DNA of 64,000 bases from Methanobrevibacter sp. (GCF_017409525.1 NZ_JAFQSO010000007.1:26826-90825), one strand, 5' to 3'. Counted from the stretch's first letter, positions 9,693 through 40,250 are shown. Notes: generated by a model not told the origin, from the letters alone. Program-made: numbers and translations.

Positions 9693-11248
9693 ATTATCGA
9701 ATTAAATTTCAATAAATGTTTCATCATGTTTAGAGAAATATTTACTGATTTTGTTGTCACTGTATTATGTGGAAGGACTACTTCACAAATTACGGCTGGA
9801 ATGCCTTTTTTATTAACATTGTCCGCTAATGCACCAGGATATTCCTGACCTGCATATTTGTACAGCCGTTTATTTACATTACAATTTTTATAGATATACT
9901 CGGTTAGCGCTTCACAATCTTTTGCAGGGCTTCTTGATCCCATCACGATATTTTGACCCGGTGCTCCGCCAGGCTTTGTTGTGTGGAAATCCCCATATGA
10001 ATCACATTTAAGTTTTACCACCATATTCACAATCTTATTAGAGACAGTTCCAGGATTAGCGGCTACACGATTGAAATCCTTATCTGTGAACCTAACCTTT
10101 TTGGAGATTGCTTTTACATTAACGAAAGGAATAATGTAAACAGTTCCGTTAATCGGATTCTCAGTCATATATTTAATCAATTTCATTGCAGCTACTTGGG
10201 AAGACAACTCATTACCGTGAACGCCTGCAGTCAAGAAGACAACTTTACCTGACCCTCCTTTAACTGTCAATAAAGGAATGCCTTTTTTGGTTGCCGCTAC
10301 AGCTTGTTTAACCCAGTAATTATTAGGCATGTACTTTTTGATTAGCGGCGCTTTAGTAACATCTCCCTTAAGGCCCCAATATAAAATTTTCATTGTGATT
10401 TTATTGGTGACAGTGTATTTGTTTTGACCGCGCATATCATCAAGAGAATAGCTAATCATGTATTTTCCAGAGTCATAATTCAGATACAAGGCAGCATAAC
10501 CTTTAGCATCAGTTCGATTATTATATACTCTATCTCCAACTGTGAATTTCACATTAGCTCCTGAAATTGGATTTCCATCATTATCCAAGACCTTAATAGT
10601 GTATTTCGCCCAAGTACCGTATTTAACTTTTATGTCTCCAGAAGAAGTAATTTTATATGAATATAAAGTAATATTCCGTGTAACTGAAGCATTGCCGTAT
10701 TCGATGAAAATTTGATAATCGCCTGCACCTAAACGAATAGGCAATTTACCCTTTCCATTTTCATCAGTGCTGATTGAATAAGCTATACTGTTAAGTATTA
10801 CTGTAACGTCATCAACTGAAACCCCCTTACCATTTGAGTCCAGAAGTTTAAAGGTATAAACTGGGTTTGCATTATAATAACAAGCATAATCATCAGCTTG
10901 AATAGTTATATTTTGTGTGGAATTACCCTCAGTAGAATTACCCTCAGTCACATTACCAGAAGTAGAATTATCATCATTGAAATTACCCTCAGTCACATTA
11001 CCAGAAGTAGAATTATCATCATTGAAATTACCCTCAGTCACATTACCAGAAGTAGAATTACCCCCAGTAGAATTATCATCTACATCAGTAGTTTCATTAG
11101 AATCAGAAATAATTGTGCTGATGTCACCATCATCACAGAAAATATCATCATTAGTACTTTCCATTACAGAATCAGTGAAATTATCTGATGCTGAAACAGA
11201 TGAAATACTAACAAATAATATTAACATTAATATCATCAAACGTTTCAT
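9689..11248 (-). CDS. Secreted Ig-like-domain protein with a low-complexity N/S/T linker and a C-terminal M14/AstE-AspA family domain (copy 1)
   Basis: Signal peptide MKRLMILMLIL (ATG 11248 overlaps the aroK TGA); two Ig-like repeats; GVHGNE, FNR, DFH and ICEV motifs. Confidence 0.8.
   Translation of the reverse strand: MKRLMILMLILFVSISSVSASDNFTDSVMESTNDDIFCDDGDISTIISDSNETTDVDDNSTGGNSTSGNVTEGNFNDDNSTSGNVTEGNFNDDNSTSGNVTEGNSTEGNSTQNITIQADDYACYYNANPVYTFKLLDSNGKGVSVDDVTVILNSIAYSISTDENGKGKLPIRLGAGDYQIFIEYGNASVTRNITLYSYKITSSGDIKVKYGTWAKYTIKVLDNDGNPISGANVKFTVGDRVYNNRTDAKGYAALYLNYDSGKYMISYSLDDMRGQNKYTVTNKITMKILYWGLKGDVTKAPLIKKYMPNNYWVKQAVAATKKGIPLLTVKGGSGKVVFLTAGVHGNELSSQVAAMKLIKYMTENPINGTVYIIPFVNVKAISKKVRFTDKDFNRVAANPGTVSNKIVNMVVKLKCDSYGDFHTTKPGGAPGQNIVMGSRSPAKDCEALTEYIYKNCNVNKRLYKYAGQEYPGALADNVNKKGIPAVICEVVLPHNTVTTKSVNISLNMMKHLLKFNSII
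10936..11060. repeat. 45-bp perfect tandem repeat (2.8 copies) encoding NDDNSTSGNVTEGNF
   Basis: aattaccctcagtcacattaccagaagtagaattatcatcattga at 10936 and 10981, partial copy at 11026; degenerate 15-bp units flank it. Confidence 0.95.
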
Positions 11249-12111
11249 ATCATCACACAACCTTTATTGTCAACATTTGTTTCTATAATTTTTCCATCAT
11301 ATTTACTCCAACATTCTTTAACATCATCAATTGACTCTTCATCAACGATTGCAACAAATGAAGAGCCAGTACCAGATAATCCGGAAGCAATAGCTCCTGA
11401 TTGAAGGGCATCAACAGCTATTGTTGAATCAAATCCTAAAGTTGCGGAATAAATTAATCCATTTAAATTTAATGCTTTAAAATAATTTTTTTGCTTTGCA
11501 AATTCAAAAGCGGTTTCAACCAGAGGCGCTAACAATTTCATTCTTTCAGGGTCTGAATCACCTGATTTCGAATAGAAATTAGGCATATATACTAAAATAG
11601 GATGTTCTTCCATTTTTTCTTTTACAATGAACTCCCTGTTTTTATTATCGGTCACTACAACCCCTCCGAAATAGGAAGCTGTTGCATCATCAAAAGAGCC
11701 GGTTATTGTAACTCCCGCATCCAGCGATGCATCAATTGCCATGTTAATTGTTTCCAAATCATCAAGAGGAGCTAAATCAAATTCCTCGCTGATTATTGAA
11801 GATACAACTTTAACGATTGCATTAGATGAGGCGCTGCTGCTTGACAGTCCAGATGCCATCGGTAAACTAGATTGTGTTTTCAAATCAACTCCAAATTCAT
11901 TTTTATCAATATTATAATGCTTGAACACCTTTTCGGCACACAAATGCATTAATCCAGTATCTGCTCCAACATCATTGGAGCAAGTAATCGAATTACTTGT
12001 TGATTTGGCAATGCATCTAATATCCAAACCAATGCCGAATGCTGAACCAAAGCCAGTTGCAATAGCATTAATGATTGTTGCCGAACCTGGAGACCTCACA
12101 GCTTTTTTCAT
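11245..12111 (-). CDS. aroK: Archaeal shikimate kinase (GHMP family)
   Basis: SATIINAIATG, LSSSSA, TGSFDDA and LSGTGSS motifs. Confidence 0.94.
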   Translation of the reverse strand: MKKAVRSPGSATIINAIATGFGSAFGIGLDIRCIAKSTSNSITCSNDVGADTGLMHLCAEKVFKHYNIDKNEFGVDLKTQSSLPMASGLSSSSASSNAIVKVVSSIISEEFDLAPLDDLETINMAIDASLDAGVTITGSFDDATASYFGGVVVTDNKNREFIVKEKMEEHPILVYMPNFYSKSGDSDPERMKLLAPLVETAFEFAKQKNYFKALNLNGLIYSATLGFDSTIAVDALQSGAIASGLSGTGSSFVAIVDEESIDDVKECWSKYDGKIIETNVDNKGCVMI

Positions 12112-13193
12112 TATTTAACCTCATCATAAGGAATATCCACTTTTGAAAATATCTTGGCCCTGCTTCTTGCATTTAATGATAAAGCCACCCTATACTCCTC
12201 ATCATTAATTACCTTATCGATTGCGCTTGCAATTGAAGAAACTTTGTTAGGATTGATTAAAAGACCCACATCTTCATTAATAATTTCGGTTATTCCTCCC
12301 ACATCACTACCGATTACAGGTTTACCGCATGCTAAAGCTTCAATTAAAACTATGCCAAAACTTTCAGAAAAGGAAGGTAGTACCAAAACATCACAACTAG
12401 GAATAATGTTTTCCACATCATTTCTAGACCCTGTGAATATCACATCACGGACGTTTTCGTCCTCAACTTTCTTGTTAAGCTTTTTATATAAAGGCCCATC
12501 ACCTACAATGACCAGATAATAATCACTGTTTGCAATCTTTTTAGCTTCAATCAAAGACTCGACATTTTTCCTTCTAATCAGATTACCTACGAAAAGCACG
12601 ATAGGCTTGTCGACCAATTTGTTTTCTTGTTTGAAAGAATCATTCTCCTTTAAAGAAAACTTATCAATGTCAACGGAGTTCCAACAAATTGAAGTTTTAT
12701 CGGAAATGCCGGTAACACCAGTGGCAATAATTTCATGTTTTAAAGCATTGCTTACCGCAAAAACGCGATCTGCTTTTTTTAATACATTTTTAATAGTGGA
12801 ACGCATCAATGGTTGTTTCTTGTATACTTCAAACATTTCAGATCCATGTGCAGTAACATAAGTTTTTATGTCATGCTCATTTCCAACTTCAACAGCAGCA
12901 GCTCCTGCAGGGAACAGGTAATGACCATGAATGATGTCAATGTCAACTTTTTCCAGAAGGTTTTCTAATGCTTTTTTAGCATTCTTTTTAAACATTAAAC
13001 CTCTGACGCCGGGAATGTTTAGTCCTTTAGTTCCAATCACATGTATCCCATCAATATCTTCAATATTCTTATGGGGATATGTGATTACATAAACCTCATG
13101 TCCCTGCTTTACAAGTTCCTTTGATAAAGTATGAATATGAACACCTACACCACCCACATGAGGCGGGAACTGGCCAACCATAGCTATTTTCAT
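12111..13193 (-). CDS. Glycosyltransferase family 4 (GT-B)
   Basis: PPHVGG, HGH, ESFGIVLIEA (EX7E) motifs. Confidence 0.92.
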   Translation of the reverse strand: MKIAMVGQFPPHVGGVGVHIHTLSKELVKQGHEVYVITYPHKNIEDIDGIHVIGTKGLNIPGVRGLMFKKNAKKALENLLEKVDIDIIHGHYLFPAGAAAVEVGNEHDIKTYVTAHGSEMFEVYKKQPLMRSTIKNVLKKADRVFAVSNALKHEIIATGVTGISDKTSICWNSVDIDKFSLKENDSFKQENKLVDKPIVLFVGNLIRRKNVESLIEAKKIANSDYYLVIVGDGPLYKKLNKKVEDENVRDVIFTGSRNDVENIIPSCDVLVLPSFSESFGIVLIEALACGKPVIGSDVGGITEIINEDVGLLINPNKVSSIASAIDKVINDEEYRVALSLNARSRAKIFSKVDIPYDEVK

Positions 13194-13233
13194 AAATTAA
13201 AATCTCCACTAATTATATTATTATTTAGTGATG

Positions 13234-13317
13234 TTATTGTTTAAATAAATATCCGAAAATTAGAAAAATTCTTTAATAAAAAAAGTCAAGTTTAATGTCT
13301 TATGCAGAGAATAAATC
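13234..13317. repeat. Direct repeat copy 1 (left of NRPS); includes a candidate TATA element for the GT4-aroK operon
   Basis: ttattgtttaaataaatatccgaaaattagaaaaattctt (40 bp) is identical to 25629..25668; close similarity continues for about 45 bp more. Confidence 0.9.
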
Positions 13318-13634
13318 TCGTAATATTTAACCAATATGTTCAAATCGTGAAAAAATTAACTCCACTGTCCTCACCCCTTGGAAAAATGGAAGAACCCCAT
13401 AAACATAGGGGAAAAACTGAAGTGATTCTTAAATAAACACTACTTAAATTCATGTTTATCCACCCTCATTATTGATTACTTCTTATTTTGATAACATTAA
13501 CATTATATCATAACTATATATGGATATTATAACGAAATATTATAATATAATTTGAATGTTAATTAATAACAAAATTTCTCGTGTTTTTAATTGGAATAAT
13601 ACTATTGCACAAAAAATACTTTAAAGCTTGAAGC

Positions 13635-13639
13635 GGAGG
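13635..13639 (+). promoter_or_regulatory. Ribosome-binding site of the NRPS
   Basis: GGAGG 7 nt upstream of the TTG start at 13647. Confidence 0.75.
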
Positions 13640-13646
13640 CCATATA

Positions 13647-16600
13647 TTGAATTATTATCAAGATGTTAAATTTATATTGAATGTTGATGTTAATGAGAAT
13701 TCAATAGAAAATGCCTTTAACAAGGCAAAAAACATTTTGAATTGGAGGATTGATGAAAATTCTAATGCAATCCTAATCGATGAGGAAGTCGATTATCAGA
13801 TTAAGGATGTTTCCAATTTAAAAGAAACCTCTGTTGAGGAAATTATAGATTCATTTTTTGATTTTACATTTGATGATATTATTGATGTTCCACTTTACAG
13901 ATTTCTAGTATTGAAAAACAATGAAAATTTTACAATTTTAGCAAACATCAACTCACTAATATTCGACTATTCCTCAATAAATGATTTCTATGAATTATTT
14001 GATAATTCTGAAAAATCTCCTCCAAAATTCAATCTGGATTCATATTATAAGGATGTTCAAGTTTACCTAAAATCTTCCGATTTTGAAAATGAATCCCGTT
14101 ATTGGAAAAACTACGTCCTAAACTCTAGCAAGCATATCAAATTCTACAACATAAAACATGACCATTATAAGAGCCAAAAAATTAATCCTGATATGAATTC
14201 CGTTTCCAGATTCATTAAAAATCATGATTGTACTTTATTTGATTTTTATGGAAGCATATTCTCACTATACTTGTCCCGCATTGACAGACTGGACGGATGT
14301 TTATTAAAAACTATTGTCCCCCGAAAAACTGATTTACAGATATTTGATAAAAATACTCTTTTTAAAGTTGATGTAAATGACCATGATTCATTCGATGATT
14401 TGTTGGATGAATTCGAATCAGCTTTAAAAAATGCTGTTGATAATACTAAAGTTGATGTTGACAATTATTTGGGTGAAAATGTCTCTTATTATACAATTTA
14501 TGATTTTTATGATTTAAATGAAAACATTAGTGTTTATAATGGAGAGGATTCAGCTTTAACATTGAACATTTATGAAAACTCATTGGAATTGCTTTACAAT
14601 TCAGACCTGTTTTCAGATGAATATATTGGGCGTATGGCAAAAAATATTGAAAGTTTGATTGATAATGTTTTAAATTCTCCTAATGCCGCAACAAGTGATA
14701 TTGATATCCTTTCAGAGGATGAAAAAAAGTTACTTCTTGATTTTTATAAGGGAATTGAAGATGATATTGACAAAGAGTTTATACTCAGCAAATATTTCCG
14801 CCATATTGCAATCAGTAATCCAGATATTATTGCTGTTGATGACGGTGTTGATCGGATAAGCTATGGTGAGCTGGAAAAATCAAGCAATTCAATTGCAAAT
14901 GATTTATTTGAGAATTACAATATTTCTTTAGGAAGTCATGTTGCTTTATTATTGCCTCGCAATTATCATTTTCTTGAATTGGTTTTAGCTTTAAATAAAA
15001 TTGGAGCCACATTCGTCCCAATAGATCTTACATATCCGATTAAACGTATTGAGCACATGTTGGAGATTTCTGAATCCGTGTGCATTGTCACTACTGAAGA
15101 TATTGCAAATAAATCTGATTTTAATCTAAATGTGGTTTGCATTGAAGACTTAAATTATGATGATGATGCTGATGTTGATATAATCTCTAGAAGCGAGGAT
15201 TTATTTTCTATAATGTTCACATCAGGAACTACAGGTCTTCCAAAGGGAGTGATGGTTTCCAATTATCAGATGGGTAGTTTAAGTATTGCTTTTAAACACC
15301 TCTTTTCTTTTTCATGTGGCGAGACTGCCGGATGTTATGTAAGTTTCAGTTTTATTGCATCATATATGGCTTATGTTGTATTGGCATTGGGGGGATGTGT
15401 CAGGATATTCAATGAAAATGAGCAGAAAAACAGCTTATTGATAATAGAAGCCCTTAAAGAAACACCAATGAATAATTTGATTTTACCTCCGACCATCGGC
15501 GTTCCTATTTATGACAATGAAGATTTGAAATTGGACTATCTTATTTTGGCAGGTGCAAAATTAAATGAACTAAGTAAACGGGACAGACATACCAAATTAG
15601 TTAATTTTTATGGCACAACAGAATTGATTTTAACAATTAGTAAAATTTATAATTTGAATGATGTTAAAGATAATCGTGTGCCCGTTGGTAAGCCTGTTGC
15701 TAACACATGGGTTTATGTTTTAGATGAAAATAGTAATATAATGCCTATTGGAGTTCCAGGAGAGTTATGTGTTTCCGGTGAAATTGTAAGTTCAGGATAT
15801 TACAATAATCCTGAATTAACAAATCAATTTTTTGTAGACAATCCAATCGCTGACAGTGAAAGTAATGGAATAATGTATCGTACCGGAGATATAGGATTTT
15901 ACAATCCGGAGGGAGAAATTGAAATTATTGGACGTGAAGACGATCAGTTGTCTGTCAGAGGTTTTCGTGTCGAATCAAATGAAATTCTTATCATAATGAA
16001 GAAATTTAAAGAAATTTCAGACGTTTATTTGGATGTTGATAATGACAACCTGATTGCATACTATACAACAAATGCCGAGTTGGACATAAATGAAGTTAAA
16101 GAAAATTTAGAAGATAATTTGCCTAGTTACATGATTCCTTCCCTTTTCATTGAATTGGATGAAATTCCATTAAATCTCAATGGAAAAATCGATAAATCTT
16201 CATTAAAAACAGCTTTAGATAATGATAACATTGAAATAACTGATGAAGTTATCAGCCATGTTGTTAATGCATTTAAAGAGGTTTTAAATATTGATTCTGT
16301 TTTCATTGATGATGATTTTGTTGGCAGAGGGGGCAATTCATTGTCTGCAATGAAATTACAATTATTATTGAAAGAAAAATTGGGCGTTAATTTATCCTCA
16401 AATGAAATAATAAGTCTTTCCACACCAAAAGACATCAGCAATCATATTAAATATAATATGAATATTCATTCGGCTCTTTATGAAGACAAATATCTGTTTG
16501 ATGAACCATGTCCTCTATCAGAATCACAATTAAACGTTTATCTTGATGAAAGTGTAAATGATATGGGCACAGCATACAACAATCCATTTAAAATAAAGTT

Positions 16601-19600
16601 AAAAGACAATTATTCCGTTAGTGAACTTAAAAATGCATTAATTAAATTGTTTGAAGTATTTCCTATTTTAAAAGCTCGTGTCTTTAGCGATGATGGAATT
16701 CTGTCCTTTGCATTTGATGCAGAACCTGAAATTAATGAAGGACATCTGAATGACATTAACTCTTTTGTCAAATCCTTTGAATTCGACAAATATTTATCCA
16801 GATTTTTAATTGTTGAAAATAAGCAATCTGTTATATTATGCGCTGATTTCCATCATTTGATTTTTGACGGCACATCATTGAACATCTTACTAGATGTCCT
16901 GTTTTCGATTTTGAATGGAGAAGATGTTGATTTTGTTGATTATGGGGTGTTAAAACAGGTTTTATTTGAAGAAAATATCGATTCAAATTATATGGATAAT
17001 GCCCATGAATTCTTTGATGAAATGCTGGCTGATAATGATGAGGTTTATGATTTACTGCCTTCTCTAAAAAGCAGTGAAGATGAATTTGAATTGGTAGATA
17101 CAATAGAGCTGGATGCGGAATATTTAAATTCATTCTTACAAAAGCATTCCATTACACATAATCAGTTCTTCGCTAGCGTTTTTGCATATGCCTTATCAAG
17201 ATTCAGCGGTTCGAATAAGGTTCTTTTCAATATTATAGATGACGGCAGAGGCAATATTGATTTGTCAGAGTCTGTAGGAATGTTCGTTAAAACATTGCCC
17301 GTCCTATTGGACTGCACAAATCAGAATGTTGATTCTTTTTTAGATTATTCTTCCACTTTGATTAATTCTGTAATGAAATATGATTTGTATCCTTTCCGTC
17401 TTTTGGCTAGTGAATATGATTTAAATTCAAATATCTTATTCCAATATTCCCATGATCTTTTTAATGACATGCTAAATAAAGAAGATTCAAAATATGGTAT
17501 TGAAGAATTGGAACATGATTTGAATGCAGATTTATCTTTATCTATTTTCAACGCTGGCGAAGATAGATTAATGATTAGGACTTTATATTCATCATTATAT
17601 TCTAAAGATTTCATTGAGCATTTTGTTGAATCTTATAAGCTAATTCTGCAGGATATAATTGAAGTTGAAGAATTAAAAGACATCAATTATACTGCAGGTG
17701 TTGATTTTGAGCTTTTAGACAGTTATAATCAGACTGGACATTCCTTGATTTATGAGGATATTTTGGATGCTTTTAATGACAATCTTGCCAAATATCCTAA
17801 AAACAATCTTGTAAGTTACAATGATAATGTTTACAGTTATGATGAAGGCGCTTTCATAGCCGATAAGATAGCCGACAGTTTAAGAAGTTTTGGTGTTGGA
17901 AAAGGGGAAAATGTCGCATTTTTAGTTGAAAGATCTGAATTATACATTTTCAGCATTTTAGGTATTCTGTCTGCCGGAGCGGTTTATGTTCCTTTGGATG
18001 ATAGTTTGCCTGATGAGCGTTTAAGTTTTATGTTGAGGGATACTAACTCTAAGGTTGTTATTGTTAGTGATGAAACTAGTGAACGTGCATTTAATTTGGG
18101 TGGTAATTGTATTACTTTAAATATTTCTGAGATTGTCAATGATGAAATTGGTATATTGTCTTGTTTGCCTGTTGTTTATAGTGATTTAGCTTGTATTTTA
18201 TACACTAGTGGTACTACTGGCGTTCCTAAAGGTGTAAAAATTACCCGCAAATCTGTAATTAATTTATCAAATTATTTTGCTGAGGATTATCCTTTTGATA
18301 ATTTAGATGTGTGTGGTTTGTATCCTTCCATTGGTTTTGATGCAGCTTCTCAATCAATATTCAAAACTATTTATGCAGGTGCTTCTCTGGTTATTATTCC
18401 AGATGACATTAAATTAGATATGATAAGGATGAATGATTATTTCTTAAAGTATAATGTCACATACTCTGCAATTCCTACTCAAGTAGCTAAACTTTTCATG
18501 CAAACTGTTGAGGATACTTCTTTAAAGAGTTTATCAATTGGTGGTGAAAAATTAGGTGAGTTTGAAAATCCTTTAAATCATATGTTAATTGATGAATTTG
18601 GACCTACTGAAGCATTTGCTTTTATCTCATCAATTGACAATTCTAAAAAAATTGATTCGTCCTCAGTAGGATTCCTAAATTACAATACAAAAACTTATAT
18701 TTTAGATAATGAATTTAGACAAGTGCCAATTGGTGCTGTCGGTGAATTGTATTTGGCAGGTTATCAAATAGCTGATGGATATCTAAATCGTGAAGAAGAA
18801 AATATCAAATCATTTATTGAAAATCCATTTGATGATAGTGTTGATTATGGTGTTTTGTATCGTACTGGCGATATGGTGCGTTTATTGCCTGATGGGTCTT
18901 TGGGTCTTGTTGGTCGTCGTGACAGTCAAGTTAAAATCAGTGGAAATCGTGTAGAATTATCAGAAATTGAATCGGTAATTCGTGAAATTGATTATATTAC
19001 GGATGTGACAGTTCAAACTATCAAACATATGGATAATTATGAATTGGTGGCTTATGTTGTAGCATCTGATGAATCTGATGATGAAACTCTAAAAGAGCAT
19101 GTTCGTGATTATGTTGCTCAATTTAAACCAGGTTATATGATTCCTTCATTTGTTGTCCGTTTGGACAGTATCCCTCTTAATATCAATGGTAAAATCGATT
19201 ATAGGCATCTGCCTGAAGTTGATTTGGACAGTTTGCGTGTGGAGTATGTTGCTCCAAATAATGAAATTGAAAAACAAATAGCCAATGCATTTGAGATTGT
19301 ATTTAATCAAAAAGACATTGGATTAAACGATGACTTTGTTCGTCTTGGCGGAGATTCCATCACTGCCATTCGTGTTGTTTCACTCTTGGAGAAAAATGAC
19401 ATTAACTGTGGTGCTGGAGATATATTGAATTATAAAACTCCATATTTGATTGCTCAAAATGTTGGCAGCATAGAGAAAGTTGCATACGATGCAGTAGAGG
19501 GAATTATGGATTTGCTTCCTATTCAGGAGTATTTCTTTGATCAAATTAACGAGGATGAATTTTCACAACACTTTATCTTAAAATCCTCAGAAAAAATAGA

Positions 19601-22600
19601 TATAAATACATTACAAGAATCTTTTGATGAATTATGCAATGTTCATGACATGCTTCGTACAAAATACAGCTATGATGAAAATGGAAAAGTAATACAGGAA
19701 ATATTGCCCGTGAATACCCAAATCCGTGAAATAGGTGAACATAATATCACCGAGAATCTTGAAGAATCACTGAAAGCAATCTATATAAAATCATTCAAAT
19801 CACTTAGCATAAAGAATAAGTTAATTGAAATCAATTTAATCCATCACAATAACGAATCCTACCTCATGTTCATCATCCATCATTTAATCATAGACGGAGT
19901 AAGCTGGAACATTCTAATCACAGATCTAACCCACATCTACACCAATTTAAAACAAGGAAAAGAAATTGAACTTTTAAGGCCGTATCCTTATAAAAATTGG
20001 GTGGAAGATGTTAGATATTTGGCTGAAAATATCAGTTATGAAGAAAAACAGCACTGGACAAAATTAAACCGACAAATTGATGATTCTACTATCAAAGGAG
20101 ATAATAAACCATTTGCGTTAGATTTTGATGTGAATTATGATGCGGATAATCTTTTGATGTTGTCTGAAGAGGAATATTGGGCCTTAGCAATCGCAAGAGC
20201 ATATAAAAAGACATATGGAAAAGAGTTAATATTAAACCGTGAGAGCCATGGCCGTGATGAGAGTATTGCAAAACTTAACAGAACAATAGGATGGTTCACA
20301 AGCCAATACCCAATACTAATCAACACAAACAACAAAAATGACAACATTTCCATAATGAACGATGTCTACAACATCAAAACAGCACTCAGAGACGTTAAAA
20401 ATTTAGGTTTGAATTATTCCTCCTTAATCTACACAACAAAAGAATTAGAATTCAAGCACTGCCCAGTAACCTTCAATTTCCTAAGCAGCGAATTTGCATT
20501 CGAAAACGAACTATTTGAATCATACATTCCAAAATCGGCTTCTAATGAGGAAATAAACATTAAACAAGACCCTACCTCTTATGGTATCACATTCAATATT
20601 GCTCGCAATGCTGATTCGTATATGGTTAGTGGGGATTATGCAGATAATACTTACATAGGCAATGATTTCAATGTTTTCATTAAAAATATCGAATCTGAAT
20701 TGAAATTCCTTGGCAATTATACATTCAAGGACAATAACATTGTTTGTTGTTTGTCTGAGTCTCAATTGGGCATTTATCTGGATGAAAAAGTGCATGAAAA
20801 AGATACTGCATATTCAGCACATGGAATTTTCGAATATGATGCCAAATATACGACTGAGAACATTAAAGATGCCATTCATGCTTTAATTAATAGGCATCCC
20901 ATCTTAAAAGGCCGAATTTTAGACACTGAAAACCTGCCTCTTTTAATTTGTGACAGCTATCCAACAATTGAAATAATCAATACGACAGATTATTCAAATC
21001 TAATCAAAGCATTCGATTTAGATAAATTCTTAGCGCGTTTTTACATCTTAGATAATGAGCAAAAGAAATTTGTATTTTATGATATGCACCATATCATTAG
21101 TGATGCAACCAGCTGTACAATCATTAATAAAGAATTACGGCAAGCTTTATTGGGCAAATTAGATGATAATGTGGATTTGGGCTTTGCTTATGCCAGCCGA
21201 AATTCATTTGAATCCCACTACAATCATAAATATGAATCCTCTCAGAAATTCTTCCATGATGAATTTGCCGACATTGATGAAATCCAACATCTTTTAAGTG
21301 ACCTTGATGGAGATAAAGGTAGTGTTAGTCTTCCTATTAGGGGCGTTCGTGATGATATTGAAACATTTACGGAAAATATTGGCATTAGTGTTGGCAGTTT
21401 ATTGAATGCTGCATTTGCATATACATATTCACGTTTCATAGGTGGCAACAAGGTTTACTATAACTTTACTGAACATGGCCGGCATGAAGATTACTCACAA
21501 AATGCAATTGGAATGTTTGTGCGAACAATACCAATCATTGCAAATTGTGAAAATAAATCGATTAATGATTACTTGACCAATATGTCTGATTTAATCTTAA
21601 ACTCAATGACAAACAGCATATATCCATTTAGATTGCTTGCAAAAGAATACAATTTAAGTATCGATGTTGCATTTGAGTATAATCATGATTTGAATGATTT
21701 CGATATTGGCAATGATTTGGTGGCAAGTGATGATGCTGACGGCATTAGCGATTTCTTATGTGTCGTCAATGACCTGGAAGACGGATTTGTCGTGACTGTA
21801 AGCCATTTAGATAAATTCAGCCAACATACAGCAAAACAATTCGTTAAAGCATTCAAAGAGGTGTTGGTCCAATTTTTAGAAAAAGAAAAACTAGAGGACA
21901 TCAGTTATATCTCCAATGAAGACATTGAACTTTTAGACAGTTATAATAAAACACAATGTCCTTTAAAGTATTGTGATATTTTGGATGCATTCAATGACAA
22001 TCTTGCCAGATACCCAAAAAACAGCCTGGTAACCTATAAAAATAATAGTTATACATATGATGAAAGTGCATTCATCGCCAATAAAATAGCAAACGATTTG
22101 AAGAAGATGGGCATTAATAAAAATGACAATGTTGCATTTTTAGTTGAGAGATCAGAATTATACCTGTTCACCATTTTAGGAATTCTATCCACCGGAGCAA
22201 CATACGTTCCTTTGGATGATGCCCTTCCGGATGAACGCATAAAGTTCATGATGGATGATGCTGATGCTGAAGTTGTTATTGTCTGTGATGATACTTACAA
22301 TCGTGCTAAAAATCTATCAGAGGAAAACAGACTTCTAAATATTTCAAACATTATCAAAGAAAATATTGGAACTTCTTCTAAGTTGGATGTTACTTATAGC
22401 GATTTGGCCTGTATCTTATACACCAGCGGCACTACAGGCATTCCTAAAGGAGTTAGAATAACACGCAAAGCTATTTTAAATCTTTCACAAACATACTGTG
22501 ACACATATGATTTTGGTCGGAATGATGTTTATGCTTTATATTCAAATATCGGATTTGACGCCGGATCTCAAGCAATCCTTCAAACAACATATGCCGGAGC

Positions 22601-25115
22601 TTCTTTAACTGTAATTCCTGAGGATATTAAATTTAATATTACTAAGTTGAATGAACATTTCATTAAACAGAATGTTACCCATACTTTTATTTCCACACAG
22701 GTCGCTAAACTGTTCATGGAGCAAATTGACAATACCTCATTAAGGATTTTATCAGTAGGCGGTGAGAAGTTAGGTAAATTCGAAAGTCCAAAAGATTATC
22801 GTTTAATTGATGCATACGGTCCAACCGAAACATTTGCATTCATATCTTCTATCGACAATGACGATAAAAAGGATGGGTCTTCAGCAGGCATGCTAAACGA
22901 AAATACTCGCGCGTATATTTTGGATGATAATTTCAGACGTGTTCCTGTCGGTGCTGTTGGTGAATTATGCTTAGCAGGTTACCAAATTGCCGACGGATAC
23001 CTAAACCGCCCAGAAGAAAACGCCAAAGCATTCATCAACAATCCATTTGATGATAAAGAAGGCTACAGCATATTGTATCGCACGGGAGATATGGTTCGGT
23101 TATTGCCTGATGGGTCATTGGGCATTGTTGGCCGTCGTGACAGCCAAGTTAAAATCAGAGGAAACCGTGTGGAACTGACAGAGGTTGAATCTGCAATAAG
23201 AGACATGGATTATATTAAAGATGTTACAGTCCAAATCACTTCAAATAATGGAAATAATGAATTAATTGCCTATATTGTACTGTCTGACGGTTTTTACGGA
23301 GATGACATTGATAATTCTGTTCGCGAATTCGTATCCAAATGCAAACCGAATTATATGGTTCCGTCATATGTAATAACATTGTATGAAATTCCTTTAAATG
23401 TAAACGGCAAAGTTGATAAGCGTGCTTTGCCCGATGTTGACATAGATAGTTTACGTGATAAATATGTCGCACCAAGAAACAAAAATGAAAAAGAAATTGT
23501 CGAAGCCTTTAAAAAAGCATTAAATTTAGAAAAAGTCAGTATATATGATGATTTCATTCGTTTAGGTGGAGATTCATTGACTGCAACTAAGTTATCATCC
23601 TATGTTAAGTCTGATGATGTCACTATGGCGGATATCTTCACTTTCCGCACTCCCGAGGCAATTGCAAAGAATATCTCTGAATACTCATTTGATTTGGATA
23701 TTTATTCTTTAGAAGATGGTTGTCCTTTGAATTCTGCGCAAAGTGATGTAATTGCAGATATAATAGGTTATAATAAATCGGATGCTTATCATGTAATAAG
23801 TTATATTCCTATCTCTAAGAAATATGATCTTGAAAAAATACTTAGTTCATTAGATGAGATGTTAAATATGCATCCGGTTTTAAGCATGCGCTTGAGTGAG
23901 CGGCATGATGAAAGTGATACTGATGTATCTAATCGAGATGCGCTTAATGATTTAATGAGAACTGCTAAAAAATTCGGAACCAAAAAATTCCTGAACATTA
24001 TCAACGGATATGGAATAAAAGATATTTGCGGTCTTTACAATATGCTTAGAACCCTTATAAGGTTGTTTAAAGGAGAGTATCCGTATTTAGTGAAAGGAAA
24101 TAAACCCCCAATTTCAGTGGAATCCAAATTTGATAGGGATGTTTTAATTGATTTCCTTTCTGAAAGTTTCGATATCTATGATTGTTTATCTAAGTTCATG
24201 ATTATTGAATCTGAGGATTCCTATTATTTATTTTGTGTGGTTCATCATCTCATTTTTGATGCAGTTTCAGCAGGAGTATTCAAAAGTGATTTCATGACGC
24301 TTCTTGACGGAGGAAGCATCGATTTTGATGACGGATTTTTAAAGGCATCTGCTTTTACTCATCAAATGAAAAGAACCGGAAAATTCAATGAAGCAAGGGA
24401 ATTTTATCACAATATTCTGTCAAATCTTGATGATGTAGACTTTTTACTGGAAGATAATCCTTCAGCTGAAGGTTATAATATGTCAACATATGATTTGGAT
24501 TTTGATAAAAAGGCATTCAAATCCTTTTTAAATAATGCTGGAATTAGTGAATACGTATTATTTATCGCTGTATTTTCTTATGCATTGTCCCAATTTGTAA
24601 ATGGTGATAAAGCCCAATTTATAATGAATGAAAATGGACGTGACAGATTCAACGAGAAATTCATATCCATGACCTCCAACCTGGTGCCGGTAGTTATAGA
24701 CTGCAAAGATCAAAGCATCAATTCATTTATTAGAGATGCCGCAGATACTGTTTACAAATCATTGAGATATAGCTATTATCCAACTTTCCTGCTTTATCCG
24801 AAATACGACTTTGAAAGAGATATAGCATTCCAATTTGTACCCAACTGGATTGCAGACGATTTTGATAGTTTTGAGAATATTGATGATATGGGTGCAGGAG
24901 AAATTATTAATCAAGTCCTTAATGATTTCAATGATTTTGTAACGGAATTATTTGTTCAAGTTCACCAAAACGGTGATGATTACAGGTTAATTATCTCACA
25001 TTCAAACAAATATTCCCAAAAGATGATTAATGACTTCAAAGACACTTACACATCAATTTTATCAAATATTATTAATGCATCCATGTCCTCTGATTTAAGC
25101 AGCACTTTGAAATAG
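13647..25115 (+). CDS. Three-module non-ribosomal peptide synthetase: C*-A-T-C-A-T-E-C-A-T-C, no TE
   Basis: Three A domains (FTSGTTGLPKG, YTSGTTGVPKG, YTSGTTGIPKG; YRTGD; NGK). Three carrier serines (GGNS 16338, GGDS 19356, GGDS 23574). C motifs HHLIFDG 16851, HHIISDA 21087, HHLIFDA 24243. E domain HHLIIDGVSW 19878 with ESHGRD and RTIGWFT. Confidence 0.96.
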   Translation: MNYYQDVKFILNVDVNENSIENAFNKAKNILNWRIDENSNAILIDEEVDYQIKDVSNLKETSVEEIIDSFFDFTFDDIIDVPLYRFLVLKNNENFTILANINSLIFDYSSINDFYELFDNSEKSPPKFNLDSYYKDVQVYLKSSDFENESRYWKNYVLNSSKHIKFYNIKHDHYKSQKINPDMNSVSRFIKNHDCTLFDFYGSIFSLYLSRIDRLDGCLLKTIVPRKTDLQIFDKNTLFKVDVNDHDSFDDLLDEFESALKNAVDNTKVDVDNYLGENVSYYTIYDFYDLNENISVYNGEDSALTLNIYENSLELLYNSDLFSDEYIGRMAKNIESLIDNVLNSPNAATSDIDILSEDEKKLLLDFYKGIEDDIDKEFILSKYFRHIAISNPDIIAVDDGVDRISYGELEKSSNSIANDLFENYNISLGSHVALLLPRNYHFLELVLALNKIGATFVPIDLTYPIKRIEHMLEISESVCIVTTEDIANKSDFNLNVVCIEDLNYDDDADVDIISRSEDLFSIMFTSGTTGLPKGVMVSNYQMGSLSIAFKHLFSFSCGETAGCYVSFSFIASYMAYVVLALGGCVRIFNENEQKNSLLIIEALKETPMNNLILPPTIGVPIYDNEDLKLDYLILAGAKLNELSKRDRHTKLVNFYGTTELILTISKIYNLNDVKDNRVPVGKPVANTWVYVLDENSNIMPIGVPGELCVSGEIVSSGYYNNPELTNQFFVDNPIADSESNGIMYRTGDIGFYNPEGEIEIIGREDDQLSVRGFRVESNEILIIMKKFKEISDVYLDVDNDNLIAYYTTNAELDINEVKENLEDNLPSYMIPSLFIELDEIPLNLNGKIDKSSLKTALDNDNIEITDEVISHVVNAFKEVLNIDSVFIDDDFVGRGGNSLSAMKLQLLLKEKLGVNLSSNEIISLSTPKDISNHIKYNMNIHSALYEDKYLFDEPCPLSESQLNVYLDESVNDMGTAYNNPFKIKLKDNYSVSELKNALIKLFEVFPILKARVFSDDGILSFAFDAEPEINEGHLNDINSFVKSFEFDKYLSRFLIVENKQSVILCADFHHLIFDGTSLNILLDVLFSILNGEDVDFVDYGVLKQVLFEENIDSNYMDNAHEFFDEMLADNDEVYDLLPSLKSSEDEFELVDTIELDAEYLNSFLQKHSITHNQFFASVFAYALSRFSGSNKVLFNIIDDGRGNIDLSESVGMFVKTLPVLLDCTNQNVDSFLDYSSTLINSVMKYDLYPFRLLASEYDLNSNILFQYSHDLFNDMLNKEDSKYGIEELEHDLNADLSLSIFNAGEDRLMIRTLYSSLYSKDFIEHFVESYKLILQDIIEVEELKDINYTAGVDFELLDSYNQTGHSLIYEDILDAFNDNLAKYPKNNLVSYNDNVYSYDEGAFIADKIADSLRSFGVGKGENVAFLVERSELYIFSILGILSAGAVYVPLDDSLPDERLSFMLRDTNSKVVIVSDETSERAFNLGGNCITLNISEIVNDEIGILSCLPVVYSDLACILYTSGTTGVPKGVKITRKSVINLSNYFAEDYPFDNLDVCGLYPSIGFDAASQSIFKTIYAGASLVIIPDDIKLDMIRMNDYFLKYNVTYSAIPTQVAKLFMQTVEDTSLKSLSIGGEKLGEFENPLNHMLIDEFGPTEAFAFISSIDNSKKIDSSSVGFLNYNTKTYILDNEFRQVPIGAVGELYLAGYQIADGYLNREEENIKSFIENPFDDSVDYGVLYRTGDMVRLLPDGSLGLVGRRDSQVKISGNRVELSEIESVIREIDYITDVTVQTIKHMDNYELVAYVVASDESDDETLKEHVRDYVAQFKPGYMIPSFVVRLDSIPLNINGKIDYRHLPEVDLDSLRVEYVAPNNEIEKQIANAFEIVFNQKDIGLNDDFVRLGGDSITAIRVVSLLEKNDINCGAGDILNYKTPYLIAQNVGSIEKVAYDAVEGIMDLLPIQEYFFDQINEDEFSQHFILKSSEKIDINTLQESFDELCNVHDMLRTKYSYDENGKVIQEILPVNTQIREIGEHNITENLEESLKAIYIKSFKSLSIKNKLIEINLIHHNNESYLMFIIHHLIIDGVSWNILITDLTHIYTNLKQGKEIELLRPYPYKNWVEDVRYLAENISYEEKQHWTKLNRQIDDSTIKGDNKPFALDFDVNYDADNLLMLSEEEYWALAIARAYKKTYGKELILNRESHGRDESIAKLNRTIGWFTSQYPILINTNNKNDNISIMNDVYNIKTALRDVKNLGLNYSSLIYTTKELEFKHCPVTFNFLSSEFAFENELFESYIPKSASNEEINIKQDPTSYGITFNIARNADSYMVSGDYADNTYIGNDFNVFIKNIESELKFLGNYTFKDNNIVCCLSESQLGIYLDEKVHEKDTAYSAHGIFEYDAKYTTENIKDAIHALINRHPILKGRILDTENLPLLICDSYPTIEIINTTDYSNLIKAFDLDKFLARFYILDNEQKKFVFYDMHHIISDATSCTIINKELRQALLGKLDDNVDLGFAYASRNSFESHYNHKYESSQKFFHDEFADIDEIQHLLSDLDGDKGSVSLPIRGVRDDIETFTENIGISVGSLLNAAFAYTYSRFIGGNKVYYNFTEHGRHEDYSQNAIGMFVRTIPIIANCENKSINDYLTNMSDLILNSMTNSIYPFRLLAKEYNLSIDVAFEYNHDLNDFDIGNDLVASDDADGISDFLCVVNDLEDGFVVTVSHLDKFSQHTAKQFVKAFKEVLVQFLEKEKLEDISYISNEDIELLDSYNKTQCPLKYCDILDAFNDNLARYPKNSLVTYKNNSYTYDESAFIANKIANDLKKMGINKNDNVAFLVERSELYLFTILGILSTGATYVPLDDALPDERIKFMMDDADAEVVIVCDDTYNRAKNLSEENRLLNISNIIKENIGTSSKLDVTYSDLACILYTSGTTGIPKGVRITRKAILNLSQTYCDTYDFGRNDVYALYSNIGFDAGSQAILQTTYAGASLTVIPEDIKFNITKLNEHFIKQNVTHTFISTQVAKLFMEQIDNTSLRILSVGGEKLGKFESPKDYRLIDAYGPTETFAFISSIDNDDKKDGSSAGMLNENTRAYILDDNFRRVPVGAVGELCLAGYQIADGYLNRPEENAKAFINNPFDDKEGYSILYRTGDMVRLLPDGSLGIVGRRDSQVKIRGNRVELTEVESAIRDMDYIKDVTVQITSNNGNNELIAYIVLSDGFYGDDIDNSVREFVSKCKPNYMVPSYVITLYEIPLNVNGKVDKRALPDVDIDSLRDKYVAPRNKNEKEIVEAFKKALNLEKVSIYDDFIRLGGDSLTATKLSSYVKSDDVTMADIFTFRTPEAIAKNISEYSFDLDIYSLEDGCPLNSAQSDVIADIIGYNKSDAYHVISYIPISKKYDLEKILSSLDEMLNMHPVLSMRLSERHDESDTDVSNRDALNDLMRTAKKFGTKKFLNIINGYGIKDICGLYNMLRTLIRLFKGEYPYLVKGNKPPISVESKFDRDVLIDFLSESFDIYDCLSKFMIIESEDSYYLFCVVHHLIFDAVSAGVFKSDFMTLLDGGSIDFDDGFLKASAFTHQMKRTGKFNEAREFYHNILSNLDDVDFLLEDNPSAEGYNMSTYDLDFDKKAFKSFLNNAGISEYVLFIAVFSYALSQFVNGDKAQFIMNENGRDRFNEKFISMTSNLVPVVIDCKDQSINSFIRDAADTVYKSLRYSYYPTFLLYPKYDFERDIAFQFVPNWIADDFDSFENIDDMGAGEIINQVLNDFNDFVTELFVQVHQNGDDYRLIISHSNKYSQKMINDFKDTYTSILSNIINASMSSDLSSTLK

Positions 25116-25628
25116 GATTATGATGTCTGAAATTTTTAGTTTTTCTGAAAGTTATTGAATGGCTGTTTTTAAGTTGAACCACCTCACCTATAGAGGTCAA
25201 AGATTCCAAGATTTAATGATAATTAAGTATTTTCCGGGCAATTTTCGGTAAATTCCAACCTATTGAAATCAATGAACTCTAAACAGTATGAGAAGTCAGA
25301 ATAAATGTTAAAATGTAGTGGTGGTTGAAATAAAACACACATCGGGTAATTTTTATATTTGAAAAAAATAATAATTTATTAAGCATAATCTCAAGGATAT
25401 GATTTTGAAAAGTTTTTTCATTTATTTTTAGGATTTTGAATTTTGGAGACAATCATGCCATTGAATATAATTAAAGACAGGGAAGTATACAGCATATATG
25501 AATTAGCTTTCTAAACTATTTTTTATTTGAATTATCGTTTGTTTAAGGATATTACATATAAATATTAATAAATAATAAGGCACTACGGCTATAATCTAGA
25601 GAACTATAAAGTAGTGATAAATAGCATA

Positions 25629-25714
25629 TTATTGTTTAAATAAATATCCGAAAATTAGAAAAATTCTTAATAAAAAAAAGTCAAATTTAATGTCTTATTA
25701 CAGAGAAAAAAATC
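25629..25714. repeat. Direct repeat copy 2 (right of NRPS, downstream of cbiD)
   Basis: Matches 13234..13317: 40 identical bp, then a few substitutions and indels. Confidence 0.9.
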
Positions 25715-25848
25715 CCTACAATATTCGCTGTAGACATTAAAAATCAATAGATGTACATCTTCAAAGAGGTTTACTTTAAAAATAACTCTCTCGTATAATC
25801 TTATTTTAAAATTTTATATAAACTTAACTATTTTTAAAAAGAAGGTAA

Positions 25849-26928
25849 TTAAACAGTGCCCATATTGTCGTTCAAATAATTCCCTTCCATATCCACTAAA
25901 ATCACATTCAAATCCAAGTCAAATCGTTGCATGCATCGCTCATGAATTGCAGATGCGATGCTGTTTGAAACTTCTAATGAAAGGCCGACTTCATTTAAGA
26001 TGTCCATCATGTCATCAGTTGTTTTGGAATCGTATAATTTTTGCAGATTTTCCCGGTCAACACCACAGAGAGCTGCATGAGTAACCATTATCTCGCGCCT
26101 GCCGTCTGCAACAGCATGCTTTGTGTCAAATATTCCTCCGGCAACTTTTATTAGTTTGCCCATGTGGCCAAAGTAAGTGAATTTAGTGATTCCCCTATTT
26201 TCAGCTTCTTCAAACATGAACCCGACATAATTACCAGTTTGAATGATTTGTTCCTTTGCAACATCCAATTTTTTAAGGGCTAATTTTTCGCCAATGTTTC
26301 CTGGAACGAAAACCAAATCCTCGATTTCAGAAGCGATGGCAACATCAATCTGCTTAACAATTGAATTTTTATATGCTTCACTGGACATTGACCTTGCAAT
26401 TCCAGTTGTTCCCAAAACGGATATCCCATCGACAATGCCCAATTTAGGATTCATTGTTTTTCGGGCAATATTCTTACCTTCAGGAATTGAGATTACAACT
26501 TTGGCTATTTTGCCATCAGGAATTTTATCTTCCAAGTTCTTAACAATCATGCTGCGAGGAACTGGATTGATTGCATAATCCCCAATGGGAATCTGAAGGC
26601 CGGGTTTTGTAACCTTGCCGACACCTTCTCCTCCAGTAATGACAACATTAGATTCTTCTGCGGTTTTATCCAATAATTCCACAGTGGCAATAATGTCCAA
26701 ATTAACAGTTACATCAGGATCATTATATGGATTTTTATGAGCTACGGCTTGCGCCTTAAAAGAAGACAATAATTTACACTCATCAATAATAATATCTAAT
26801 GTTTTTTTGGGAGTTTCAACTTTAACGCATGCAATATCCGGCGATTCAATGATTGCATCCAAAGCGGCAAGGGAACATGCTGTTGCAACCGTGCCTGTTG
26901 TAACCCCAATATAGTTGTCATTAGTCAT
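25849..26928 (-). CDS. cbiD: Cobalt-precorrin-5B C1-methyltransferase
   Basis: GVTTGT, DPDVT, GISVLGTTGI and GHMGKLIKVAGG motifs. Confidence 0.95.
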   Translation of the reverse strand: MTNDNYIGVTTGTVATACSLAALDAIIESPDIACVKVETPKKTLDIIIDECKLLSSFKAQAVAHKNPYNDPDVTVNLDIIATVELLDKTAEESNVVITGGEGVGKVTKPGLQIPIGDYAINPVPRSMIVKNLEDKIPDGKIAKVVISIPEGKNIARKTMNPKLGIVDGISVLGTTGIARSMSSEAYKNSIVKQIDVAIASEIEDLVFVPGNIGEKLALKKLDVAKEQIIQTGNYVGFMFEEAENRGITKFTYFGHMGKLIKVAGGIFDTKHAVADGRREIMVTHAALCGVDRENLQKLYDSKTTDDMMDILNEVGLSLEVSNSIASAIHERCMQRFDLDLNVILVDMEGNYLNDNMGTV

Positions 26929-39161: not shown

Positions 39162-40250
39162 TTATGTTCTCCTGATTACCAAATTATCTCCGGACTTCTT
39201 AAATTCCACTTGTCCGTCTAAAGAAACATCAATATCATCAATGCTTATCTTTCCGTCAACCAGATCAACTATTGTTTTTCCTATGTTGATGTTAGATATT
39301 TTACTTAAGCCAACATAAGGGGTTGTGAATCTTGAATTTATCTCCAGAAGATAAACTGAATAGACATCTTTTTCATCAGCATTGATTAATAAGTCAACAC
39401 CAACAAAACCTTTTAAGCCGTCAATAGATTCTACTGCTTTTACTGCAATGTCATATGCCTCATCTTTGAATTTGCTATCATAAGGCAACTTTCCACCAAG
39501 ATAAGTTCCCTTATCGTTTTCAAGCTCTACAAATTGCTGGTTTAAACTTATTGGAATGGCTTTTTTGCCATCGGATATCAAGCTTACGCTTACATCCATT
39601 CCGTAAATAAACTCCTGGACGATGACTCTGGAGCCGGGTACGAATATCTTATCCAAATCCAAAGTTAAATCCTCAATATTTTCGATGACAACAATGTCCT
39701 CACAGTCAACTCCCATCAAAGGTTTAATTATTAACTTTAGTGGAGTTAGAGGGTCTTCAGCTTGCCATTTTTCGTATAAATTATCAATTGCTCTTTTCCA
39801 GTACCCCTTAGAATCAATTTTGAATCTAAATGTTCTTGGTTGCGGAACAATGCCTGCAAGTTCTTCATAAGTTACTGATTTATCAGATGACTTGAAACAA
39901 GCCTCTGATGAAGAATTGTATGTTTTTACATTATTTTCTTCCAATATCTTTGAAATTGAGTAAAGATTGTTGTTGTTTTCTGCAGCTATGAAAATTGCTT
40001 TTCTAAAATTGGATGCATTGCCTTCAAGCCAATCCACCACATCCCCCTGGATGAAAATAGGATTTACATTCTCATAACCATTTACAGCATCTTCATAAGA
40101 TTCATTTACAACCAAATCAACATTGAAATCATTTAAATCTTCTAAAAGACTGAAAAGTAAAGCTTCAGCTTCAGAAATGATGCATTTATCTTTTTCGCCT
40201 GAAGCCGTAAAATATTCGAATACCAAAATTGAGTCATTCTCTTGCATCAT
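39162..40250 (-). CDS. mfnD: Tyramine-L-glutamate ligase (ATP-grasp)
   Basis: FEYFTAS N-terminus; IIKP, VQEF, GFVGVD and [11 protein letters not shown]-grasp motifs. Confidence 0.85.

Follow-up and report, generated by a model that had tools for sequence, protein, structure and literature searches.

A non-ribosomal peptide synthetase gene at a probable insertion hot spot in the cbiD 3' end of Methanobrevibacter

Integrative elements that target the 3' ends of genes include the tRNA-targeting elements of archaea and bacteria as well as e14 and phage 21, both of which sit in icd of E. coli. CIMEs, found beside ICEs in Streptococcus, are cis-mobilizable, att-flanked elements that have no integrase, and casposons are characterized by long target duplications and a preference for gene 3' ends. 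To our knowledge, 'horizontal transfer' is usually the only explanation given for the non-ribosomal peptide synthetase (NRPS) genes of methanogens.

The genome of M. ruminantium M1 contains NRPS genes of probable bacterial origin (PMC2812497), and the NRPS gene described here resembles them in being large and multi-module, in belonging to a Methanobrevibacter and in being thought to be horizontally acquired. Flanking repeats and an insertion-site analysis, both of which are presented below for our locus, are not reported in the M1 paper (PMC2812497). Our locus lies in a 64,000-nucleotide stretch of DNA from Methanobrevibacter sp. (GCF_017409525.1 NZ_JAFQSO010000007.1:26826-90825), hereafter the window. 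Its NRPS is set apart from the M1 case by an identity of 52-64% to its closest homologs among genus representatives over the N-terminal 418 aa (best 64%), by a terminal condensation domain, and by its location at a probable cbiD hot spot. With a probability of roughly 0.6, the junction between cbiD and the GT4 glycosyltransferase gene is an insertion hot spot in one clade of the genus, with the NRPS as cargo of one of the inserts.

The repeat pair and the DNA between its copies

Positions 13231-13303 and 25626-25698 are 93% identical over 73 nt without gaps, with a start-to-start spacing of 12,395 bp, and a gapped alignment extends the similarity to ~13326/25722 (86% over ~97 columns). The exact 40-mer shared by the two (13234-13273 = 25629-25668) has no further occurrence in the 64,000-nt window, and in a shuffle control 0 of 100 shuffles gave even one match to it. 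About 20 bp to the left are also similar across a 12-nt indel (TTTAGTG, the 12-nt gap and ATGTTATTG against AAAGTAGTGATAAATAGCATATTATTG). The direct repeat of ~85 bp that an initial annotation of the window had placed here is thus confirmed, with 40 bp exact and ~86-93% identity over 73-97 bp. The same annotation had stated that the repeats enclose the NRPS and non-coding DNA only. This holds in that no other intact gene lies between them, with the qualification that the interval also contains backbone sequence (see below), an IS4-like end and a DUF4013 gene fragment. As it had also stated, no intact integrase, transposase or tRNA gene is found inside, the nearest tRNAs being at 32.7 kb, and Pfam bears out the identities that it had given to the GT4, shikimate kinase, NRPS and CbiD genes.

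Each copy of the repeat is a core plus the first ~75 bp (module A) of a ~750-bp backbone, placed at the left end of each unit. We name the backbone modules, in order, A, B, X, UL and Z, with A beginning right at the core. The order of units in the window is c1-[A-UL-NRPS-IS remnant-gene fragment-pseudo cbiD tail]-c2-[A-B]-c3/cbiD, where c1 to c3 are the core copies (Table 1). The two copies differ in structure: on the left A is fused directly to UL, modules B and X (~300 bp) being missing and the A/UL joint falling at an ATATT microhomology, and on the right A and B run into the cbiD stop, so that the last cbiD codons (MGTV and the stop, 25849-25865) come from backbone sequence. A similarity search of the genus found no homolog of 13491-13646 anywhere in it.

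Table 1. Features of the cbiD-GT4 region, in positions of the window
Feature	Position	Strand	Basis or remark
GHMP-type shikimate kinase (aroK)	11245-12111	-	
GT4 glycosyltransferase, leads the GT4-aroK-peptidase operon	12111-13193	-	Pfam Glycos_transf_1/Glyco_transf_4
Ancestral cbiD-GT4 junction: GT4 leader with RBS and old cbiD tail remnant (TTTAGTGAT)	13194-13233	-	
Left repeat, core and module A	13231-13326	+	Truncated; long hairpin without its 3' half
Core copy c1 (TTATTGTTTAAATAAAT)	13234-13250	+	15-mer identical to cbiD 3' end (codons YLNNN) of empty-site genomes
Backbone module UL, joined directly to A	13327-13490	+	Homologs in >20 genomes and on contig C5 of the same genome
Unique sequence before NRPS start	13491-13646	+	Similarity search of genus
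NRPS cargo, 3822 aa	13647-25115	+	Pfam Condensation, AMP-binding, PP-binding
IS4-like DDE insertion sequence, ~50-bp terminal-end remnant	25127-25175	-	12 bp past NRPS stop
DUF4013 membrane-protein gene, 5' fragment (upstream region and ~20 codons)	25397-25514	+	
Right terminus of NRPS unit: pseudo cbiD tail (AGTAGTGATAAATAGCAT), directly before c2	25570-25628	+	Weak
Right repeat, core and module A	25626-25722	+	Ungapped and gapped alignment
Core copy c2	25629-25645	+	
Module B	25723-25865	-	Candidate ~130-nt RNA or terminator
cbiD	25849-26928	-	Pfam CbiD
Core copy c3 (ATTGTCGTTCAAATAATT) in true cbiD 3' end (codons NYLNDN)	25865-25882	+	

Six Condensation, three AMP-binding and three PP-binding stretches were found by Pfam in the NRPS, which is therefore a modular non-ribosomal peptide synthetase. 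NRPS genes occur in 28 of 100 genomes of the genus, and the best match in a large protein collection reaches 75% identity over the first 500 aa. The proteins encoded by the flanks are 79-94% identical to those of relatives, as against <=64-75% for the NRPS to anything else, and the nearest homolog lies in a different context, which argues that the NRPS is foreign to the site. Its G+C content is 32.6%, compared with 36-39% for its neighbours. The same genome has a second NRPS gene at C21:~39852-41060; its open frame is 4422 aa long, and at the N-terminus it shares 55% identity with the window NRPS.

The IS4-like remnant is 86% identical to the end of an intact IS on contig C15 of the same genome (~184630-185879), and the DUF4013 fragment is 81% identical to C23:101618-101719, the start of an intact 259-aa gene. 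A search for IS ends on both sides of the cargo, as in a composite transposon, returned only 25127-25175, with nothing IS-like at 13327-13646. The intact C15 element encodes a 352-aa transposase (Pfam DDE_Tnp_1) between inverted ends (GGGGCCTGAATTTTTT / AAAAAATTCAGACCCC), and a 50-mer of the IS end is multi-copy and is found at contig ends in several congeners. The intact DUF4013 paralog lies outside the window, at C23:100896-101675.

Inserts enter the 3' end of cbiD

GT4 and cbiD are single-copy genes in about 100 of 102 species representatives (GT4 in 101 of 102), and in 86 they are found on the same contig. The gap between them is 10-42 bp in 50 of these 86 congeners, 50-300 bp in 11 and 650-2600 bp in 21; the largest gaps, one genome each, are 4.7 kb (G011), 10.7 kb (G076) and 12.66 kb, the last being that of the window and the largest of all. 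Because most congeners stand at 10-42 bp, direct adjacency, with GT4 following cbiD within 10-42 bp, is the ancestral state, and the longer spacers are therefore inserts. Among the syntenic loci fetched from sampled relatives, none carries an NRPS at cbiD-GT4. Thus the NRPS is an insertion between cbiD and GT4, as the initial annotation had proposed.

In the large protein collection, cbiD has no relatives closer than 90-91% identity; the contigs fetched for one of these contain a 762-bp spacer that is one backbone copy. All 24 conspecific contigs that encode an identical cbiD carry the NRPS; where NRPS contigs were compared as DNA, both repeats are present at ~100% identity, and the 24 include no excised or empty form. 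Given its presence in 24 of 24 contigs and its absence from relatives, the insert is species-specific and fixed in the sampled material. In principle, c1/A and c2/A could recombine and so excise the unit, though none of the 24 contigs lends this support.

The point of entry is visible in three empty-site genomes (G030, G055 and G081), with whose junctions 13194-13233 of the window aligns. There the cbiD coding end, ...GGAAATTATTTAAACAATAAC (NYLNNN), is followed by a few more codons, then by ~25-40 bp, and then by the GT4 start. The reverse complement of GGAAATTATTTAAACAATAAC is GTTATTGTTTAAATAATT, the first 15-17 bp of module A, and each of the three genomes has one copy of GTTATTGTTTAAATAATT, as cbiD coding sequence. 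The core of ~17 bp is TTATTGTTTAAATAAT-like and matches the cbiD 3' end in genomes with an empty site. Two direct copies of it surround the inserts of G004, G011, G025, G028, G041, G054, G068, G080 and G101, and two are also present in G078, where the GT4-side one is weak. In all, the core is duplicated around inserts in at least 10 genomes, the direct repeats sharing this core with the empty target site, and inserts other than that of the window, bounded by the duplicated core, are carried at the junction by at least 12 species. The genome of the window has three copies, at 13234, 25629 and 25865. Inserts therefore enter the last cbiD codons, just past ...NYLN(N/D)N, and each lies between two direct ~17-bp cores, one kept in cbiD and the other beside GT4; the C-terminal tail of CbiD that follows NYLN(N/D)N varies from genome to genome with the insert. 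The idea in the initial annotation that the flanking direct repeats are tied to the entry of DNA at the cbiD-GT4 site is upheld by this duplication of the core in relatives.

The number of separate entries may be smaller than the number of occupied sites. One left-junction variant, core+TAATT, is common to about eight genomes, and one ancestral insertion followed by internal turnover may explain part of the pattern in place of many independent insertions. The core is also AT-rich and TATA-like, and duplications could be favoured simply because selection retains the cbiD end together with a GT4 promoter.

From genome to genome the cores enclose unrelated DNA, with genes in some and short non-coding sequence in others. 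The inserts hold a PIN/MazE-like pair in G078, TetR and a CPBP protease in G045 and G080, a cluster of alcohol dehydrogenase (ADH), F420 reductase and regulator in G011, acetolactate decarboxylase in G021, and short non-coding pieces in G025, G101 and G028; in G076 there are an adhesin-like gene and two ORFs that resemble a split transposase, by appearance alone. In G045, in G076 and in the window, the cargo has a core+A on its GT4 side and a second, more complete backbone copy on the other. The spacer of G062 has the order A-B-X-UL-Z followed by a second A-B, with no NRPS, and tandem backbone copies without cargo are present in G004, G017 and G029. No integrase-like gene is present among the insert ORFs of G011, G021, G045, G078 and G080, of which Pfam covered the PIN, MazE-like and CPBP proteins and a TetR homolog. 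A search of the window's own genome with PF00589 gave none on contig C23 and three matches, on C6, C7 and C15. No recombinase is linked to the insert in any insert examined.

A unit of the same kind is found elsewhere in the genome of the window. Between an FKBP-type isomerase gene and a hexapeptide acetyltransferase gene lies a 2.5-kb unit (C5:79467-82049) with the order core-A-B-X-UL-Z-TetR-CPBP, a short cbiD-tail-like sequence and another core. Its TetR and CPBP/Rce1-like protease genes are the pair also present at cbiD-GT4 in G045 and G080. The two genes are ~95 bp apart in seven relatives, with a core-like TTTTTTTAAACAATA in the spacer. Since this site is empty in the seven relatives, a unit with such ends has been inserted in a place that has nothing to do with cbiD. 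At its right terminus (25570-25628), the NRPS unit is weakly similar to the TetR-CPBP unit at its own right end (z = 3.7, equalled by 1 of 500 shuffles), and the right-terminus comparisons overall, with z = 3.1-3.7 in two and 1.2 in a third, indicate weak homology. Compared with the cbiD 3' tail of G041, the same segment agrees at about 26 of 33 positions, a count made by eye on the strings and not from a computed alignment.

A dispersed non-coding backbone

When a query of ~100 bp from the repeat was searched against the whole genome, it matched at four places: the two in the window, C7:111403-111488 (89%) and C5:81929-81995 (78%). The right copy and those on C7 and C5 share about 240 bp, of which the left copy shares the first ~90 bp only. 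With the 240-bp query, matches were obtained in 57 of 100 genus genomes, at 1-7 copies each and 70-84% identity over the longer matches, and homologs of 13329-13478 are found in >20 genomes, always at a distance of ~150 bp downstream from the 240-bp part. When 14 full copies are aligned, they show a continuous conserved block of ~600 bp, with conservation to ~760 bp and an identity of 75-90%. The repeat is the shared end-piece of a genus-wide, integrase-less insert family and not a one-off duplication of the native spacer.

It is here that the initial annotation has to be corrected, as it had taken the repeat to be the native cbiD-GT4 spacer, duplicated in this one event; the native gap is 10-42 bp, and the repeat is the core together with the terminus of a dispersed element. 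A dispersed 85-mer unrelated to NRPS loci had itself been named there as evidence against the account. The 85-mer is indeed dispersed and is not found beside other NRPS loci, a result that overturns the account in part only. A long target duplication, in which a single insertion of the NRPS would have duplicated ~85 bp of native spacer and left a self-contained island, is very improbable. It would agree with the lack of the NRPS in relatives, and the two copies, with their 40 exact bp and two private substitutions (TTAGAAAAATTC) that both window copies have and other copies lack, may be sisters; indeed, over the first 45 bp the two A copies of the window are each other's best match. Yet a native spacer of 10-42 bp offers no 85-bp sequence to duplicate, the sequence is part of the ~750-bp element present in 57 of 100 genomes, and the two copies continue differently after A, into UL on the left and B on the right. 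Moreover, over ~97 columns the right copy resembles copies from other species or loci (88.8-89.8%) no less than it does the left copy (86%). A recent duplication or gene conversion of the left half of the repeat is a possibility that these substitutions suggest and that the data do not require.

Close pairs of copies (<15 kb apart) are in direct orientation in 11 of 11 cases in the genus, with 0 inverted. Truncated copies break off at heterogeneous points. One common, site-specific breakpoint where A ends was therefore considered and rejected, and the heterogeneity also speaks against the internal rearrangements being the work of a precise site-specific process. Separately, neither the inter-copy sequence of G062 nor module Z matched the left flank of the right copy significantly (z -1.4 to 1.7).

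Two small ORFs of the backbone, of ~50 aa on the plus strand and 64 aa on the minus strand, were rejected as genes: their variability by codon position (0.100/0.088/0.110) is that of the non-coding control. Their frames are broken in several copies and Pfam gave no match. Because of the even codon-position substitutions, the broken frames and the silence of Pfam, we treat the backbone as non-coding. Rfam 15 covariance models, those of group II introns and IS-associated RNAs included, gave no match at E <= 1 in four loci that together hold all four copies of the genome. Read on its minus strand, module B has a TATA-like box and two conserved hairpins, and a T8 run comes next, already within A. 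The folding energy of this strand is -28.3 kcal/mol (z = -3.3), compared with -17.0 for the plus strand, and there is no fold signal in the left repeat (13231-13326; z = -0.3). Over 28 copies, 98.6% of cells pair, and many of the pairs are G-U, equivalent to C-A on the other strand, which favours the minus strand; the covariation score is not significant (70 of 500 shuffles do as well), because the sequence is nearly invariant. In the window, 25668-25800 on the minus strand, with its two hairpins and T8 run, is a candidate ~130-nt structured RNA or terminator. Module Z contains a tandem iteron-like AAAATTGTAG(Y)CAT, present twice at ~+600 to +680 from the A start in most copies (e.g. that on C5).

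The left end of A is in most copies at promoter distance from a leftward gene, 26-130 bp upstream of it, with a TATA-like ATATTTATTTAAA on the minus strand, a placement that would fit an outward promoter. This placement, and the conserved minus-strand hairpins followed by a T-run, as in a terminator, would also be expected if the repeat were a conserved promoter/terminator module that selection has kept twice, non-mobile and around the NRPS by coincidence. We regard such a coincidence as quite unlikely: the right copy has no gene to drive, being separated by 510 bp of debris from the convergent end of the NRPS, empty sites exist at both the cbiD and the C5 loci, all 11 close pairs are direct repeats, and the core is identical to the cbiD coding end.

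At 29 NRPS homolog loci of the genus, the backbone is absent from 1.5 kb to each side of the N-terminal match, the upstream flank included; in these 1.5-kb flanks the 85-mer, which the initial annotation had proposed to look for beside other NRPS loci, is likewise absent. Nor is the backbone found around the closest NRPS homolog in metagenome contigs, so that the 29 genus loci and this homolog include no donor locus at which the backbone adjoins an NRPS. The homology of the closest homolog locus to the window ends at the coding ends. This homolog, of 4820 aa, lies beside two AAA_14/DUF4143 ATPase genes, and some of its contigs have an adjoining weak phage-integrase match. Such a neighbourhood suggests a different mobile context for a related synthetase.

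The tandem copies in G062 raise the question whether a spacer with two copies pre-existed in the window as well, the NRPS having been dropped between them by IS transposition or illegitimate recombination; the repeats would then be uninformative on its arrival. G062 has A-B-X-UL-Z and a second A-B in the same spacer without the NRPS, and in this it partly agrees with an observation that the initial annotation had named as evidence against itself, an NRPS-less relative with both copies. The cargo-free tandem backbones of G004, G017 and G029 point the same way, as do the IS4-like end 12 bp past the NRPS stop and the gene fragment, both of them unrelated insertions on the right flank. We nevertheless consider a pre-existing two-copy spacer unlikely. 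Homology to the inter-copy DNA of G062 is not detectable in the sequence that adjoins the right copy on its left (z = 0.3), and there is only one IS end, with nothing IS-like on the 5' side of the NRPS. The pseudo cbiD tail stands directly before c2, as it does at the right end of TetR-CPBP units, and cargo bracketed by core+A recurs, with different contents, in G045, G076 and G078 and on C5.

Arrival of the NRPS unit and comparison with known systems

A hot spot at the cbiD-GT4 junction with the NRPS as one of its cargoes is favoured by the spacer lengths, the core copy counts, the varied insert contents, the dispersed backbone, the direct orientation of close pairs, the C5 unit and the foreign character of the NRPS. 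Against it stand the lack of a linked recombinase, the three tyrosine-recombinase loci being on other contigs only, the lack of an excised or empty form in the 24 conspecific contigs and of a donor locus, and the weak homology of the right terminus. The most economical account of the window is that it contains two tandem units at the cbiD hot spot. The NRPS unit would have arrived as a circular or linear piece that already possessed the pseudo-tail-core-A sequence, the junction expected of an excised unit of the core/backbone insert family, and would have recombined with a resident backbone at its core/A. A trans-acting recombinase may have brought this about, or else homologous recombination of one backbone copy with another. 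On the left B-X, and on the right X-UL-Z, may later have been lost by deletion. Module A may provide an outward TATA-like promoter that keeps GT4-aroK expressed once these genes are cut off from cbiD.

Possibly, the backbone is itself the mobile machinery. More speculatively, and with the odds against it, the core and the ~750-nt backbone might represent an undescribed class of archaeal integrase-less cassettes, mobilised in trans or via a backbone RNA. Such cassettes would bring accessory genes, ranging from toxin-antitoxin pairs up to a 12-kb NRPS, to the cbiD 3' end and to AT-rich sites that resemble it, would rebuild the cbiD end and would give the downstream operon a promoter.

On the hot-spot reading, the landing site of an NRPS gene is resolved to the base, within the final cbiD codons, and the same site has been used in at least a quarter of the sampled species, with unrelated cargo and without a visible recombinase. 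Were the backbone the active part, gut and rumen methanogens would have in it a new way to gain and lose genes, and it would provide genetic tools, which the genus lacks, with a natural integration site that brings its own promoter. If the site is only a decaying hot spot, it still shows that the direct repeats flanking an island can be the termini of an element and not target duplications.

Among known systems, casposons share with this locus long target duplications and the preference for gene 3' ends, and differ from it in that neither Cas1 nor a polymerase is present here. The backbone is like MITEs in being small, multi-copy and non-coding; by inspection, its left end and its ~+760 end show no convincing terminal inverted repeats. 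Unlike in casposons and MITEs, the same core sequence is found at the left end of copies at unrelated loci, and the core therefore belongs to the element and is not a site-dependent duplication.

Integrative elements of gene 3' ends are closer. As with these, entry is in the last codons of a conserved gene (cbiD) and a direct repeat of the target core is formed, the gene is completed by the incoming sequence and its old end is displaced to the far side, and units accrete in tandem at one site. In contrast to them, the inserts examined have no integrase, the core is only ~17 bp and imperfect, and a long conserved non-coding backbone takes the place of recombination genes. With CIMEs the locus shares a cargo between att-like direct repeats, the lack of recombination genes and tandem units at one hot spot; it differs in its archaeal host, in its conserved non-coding backbone and in that no autonomous integrase-bearing partner was detected there in any genome. 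By analogy, the architecture appears to be that of gene-3'-end integrative elements combined with that of integrase-less, att-flanked (CIME-like) elements.
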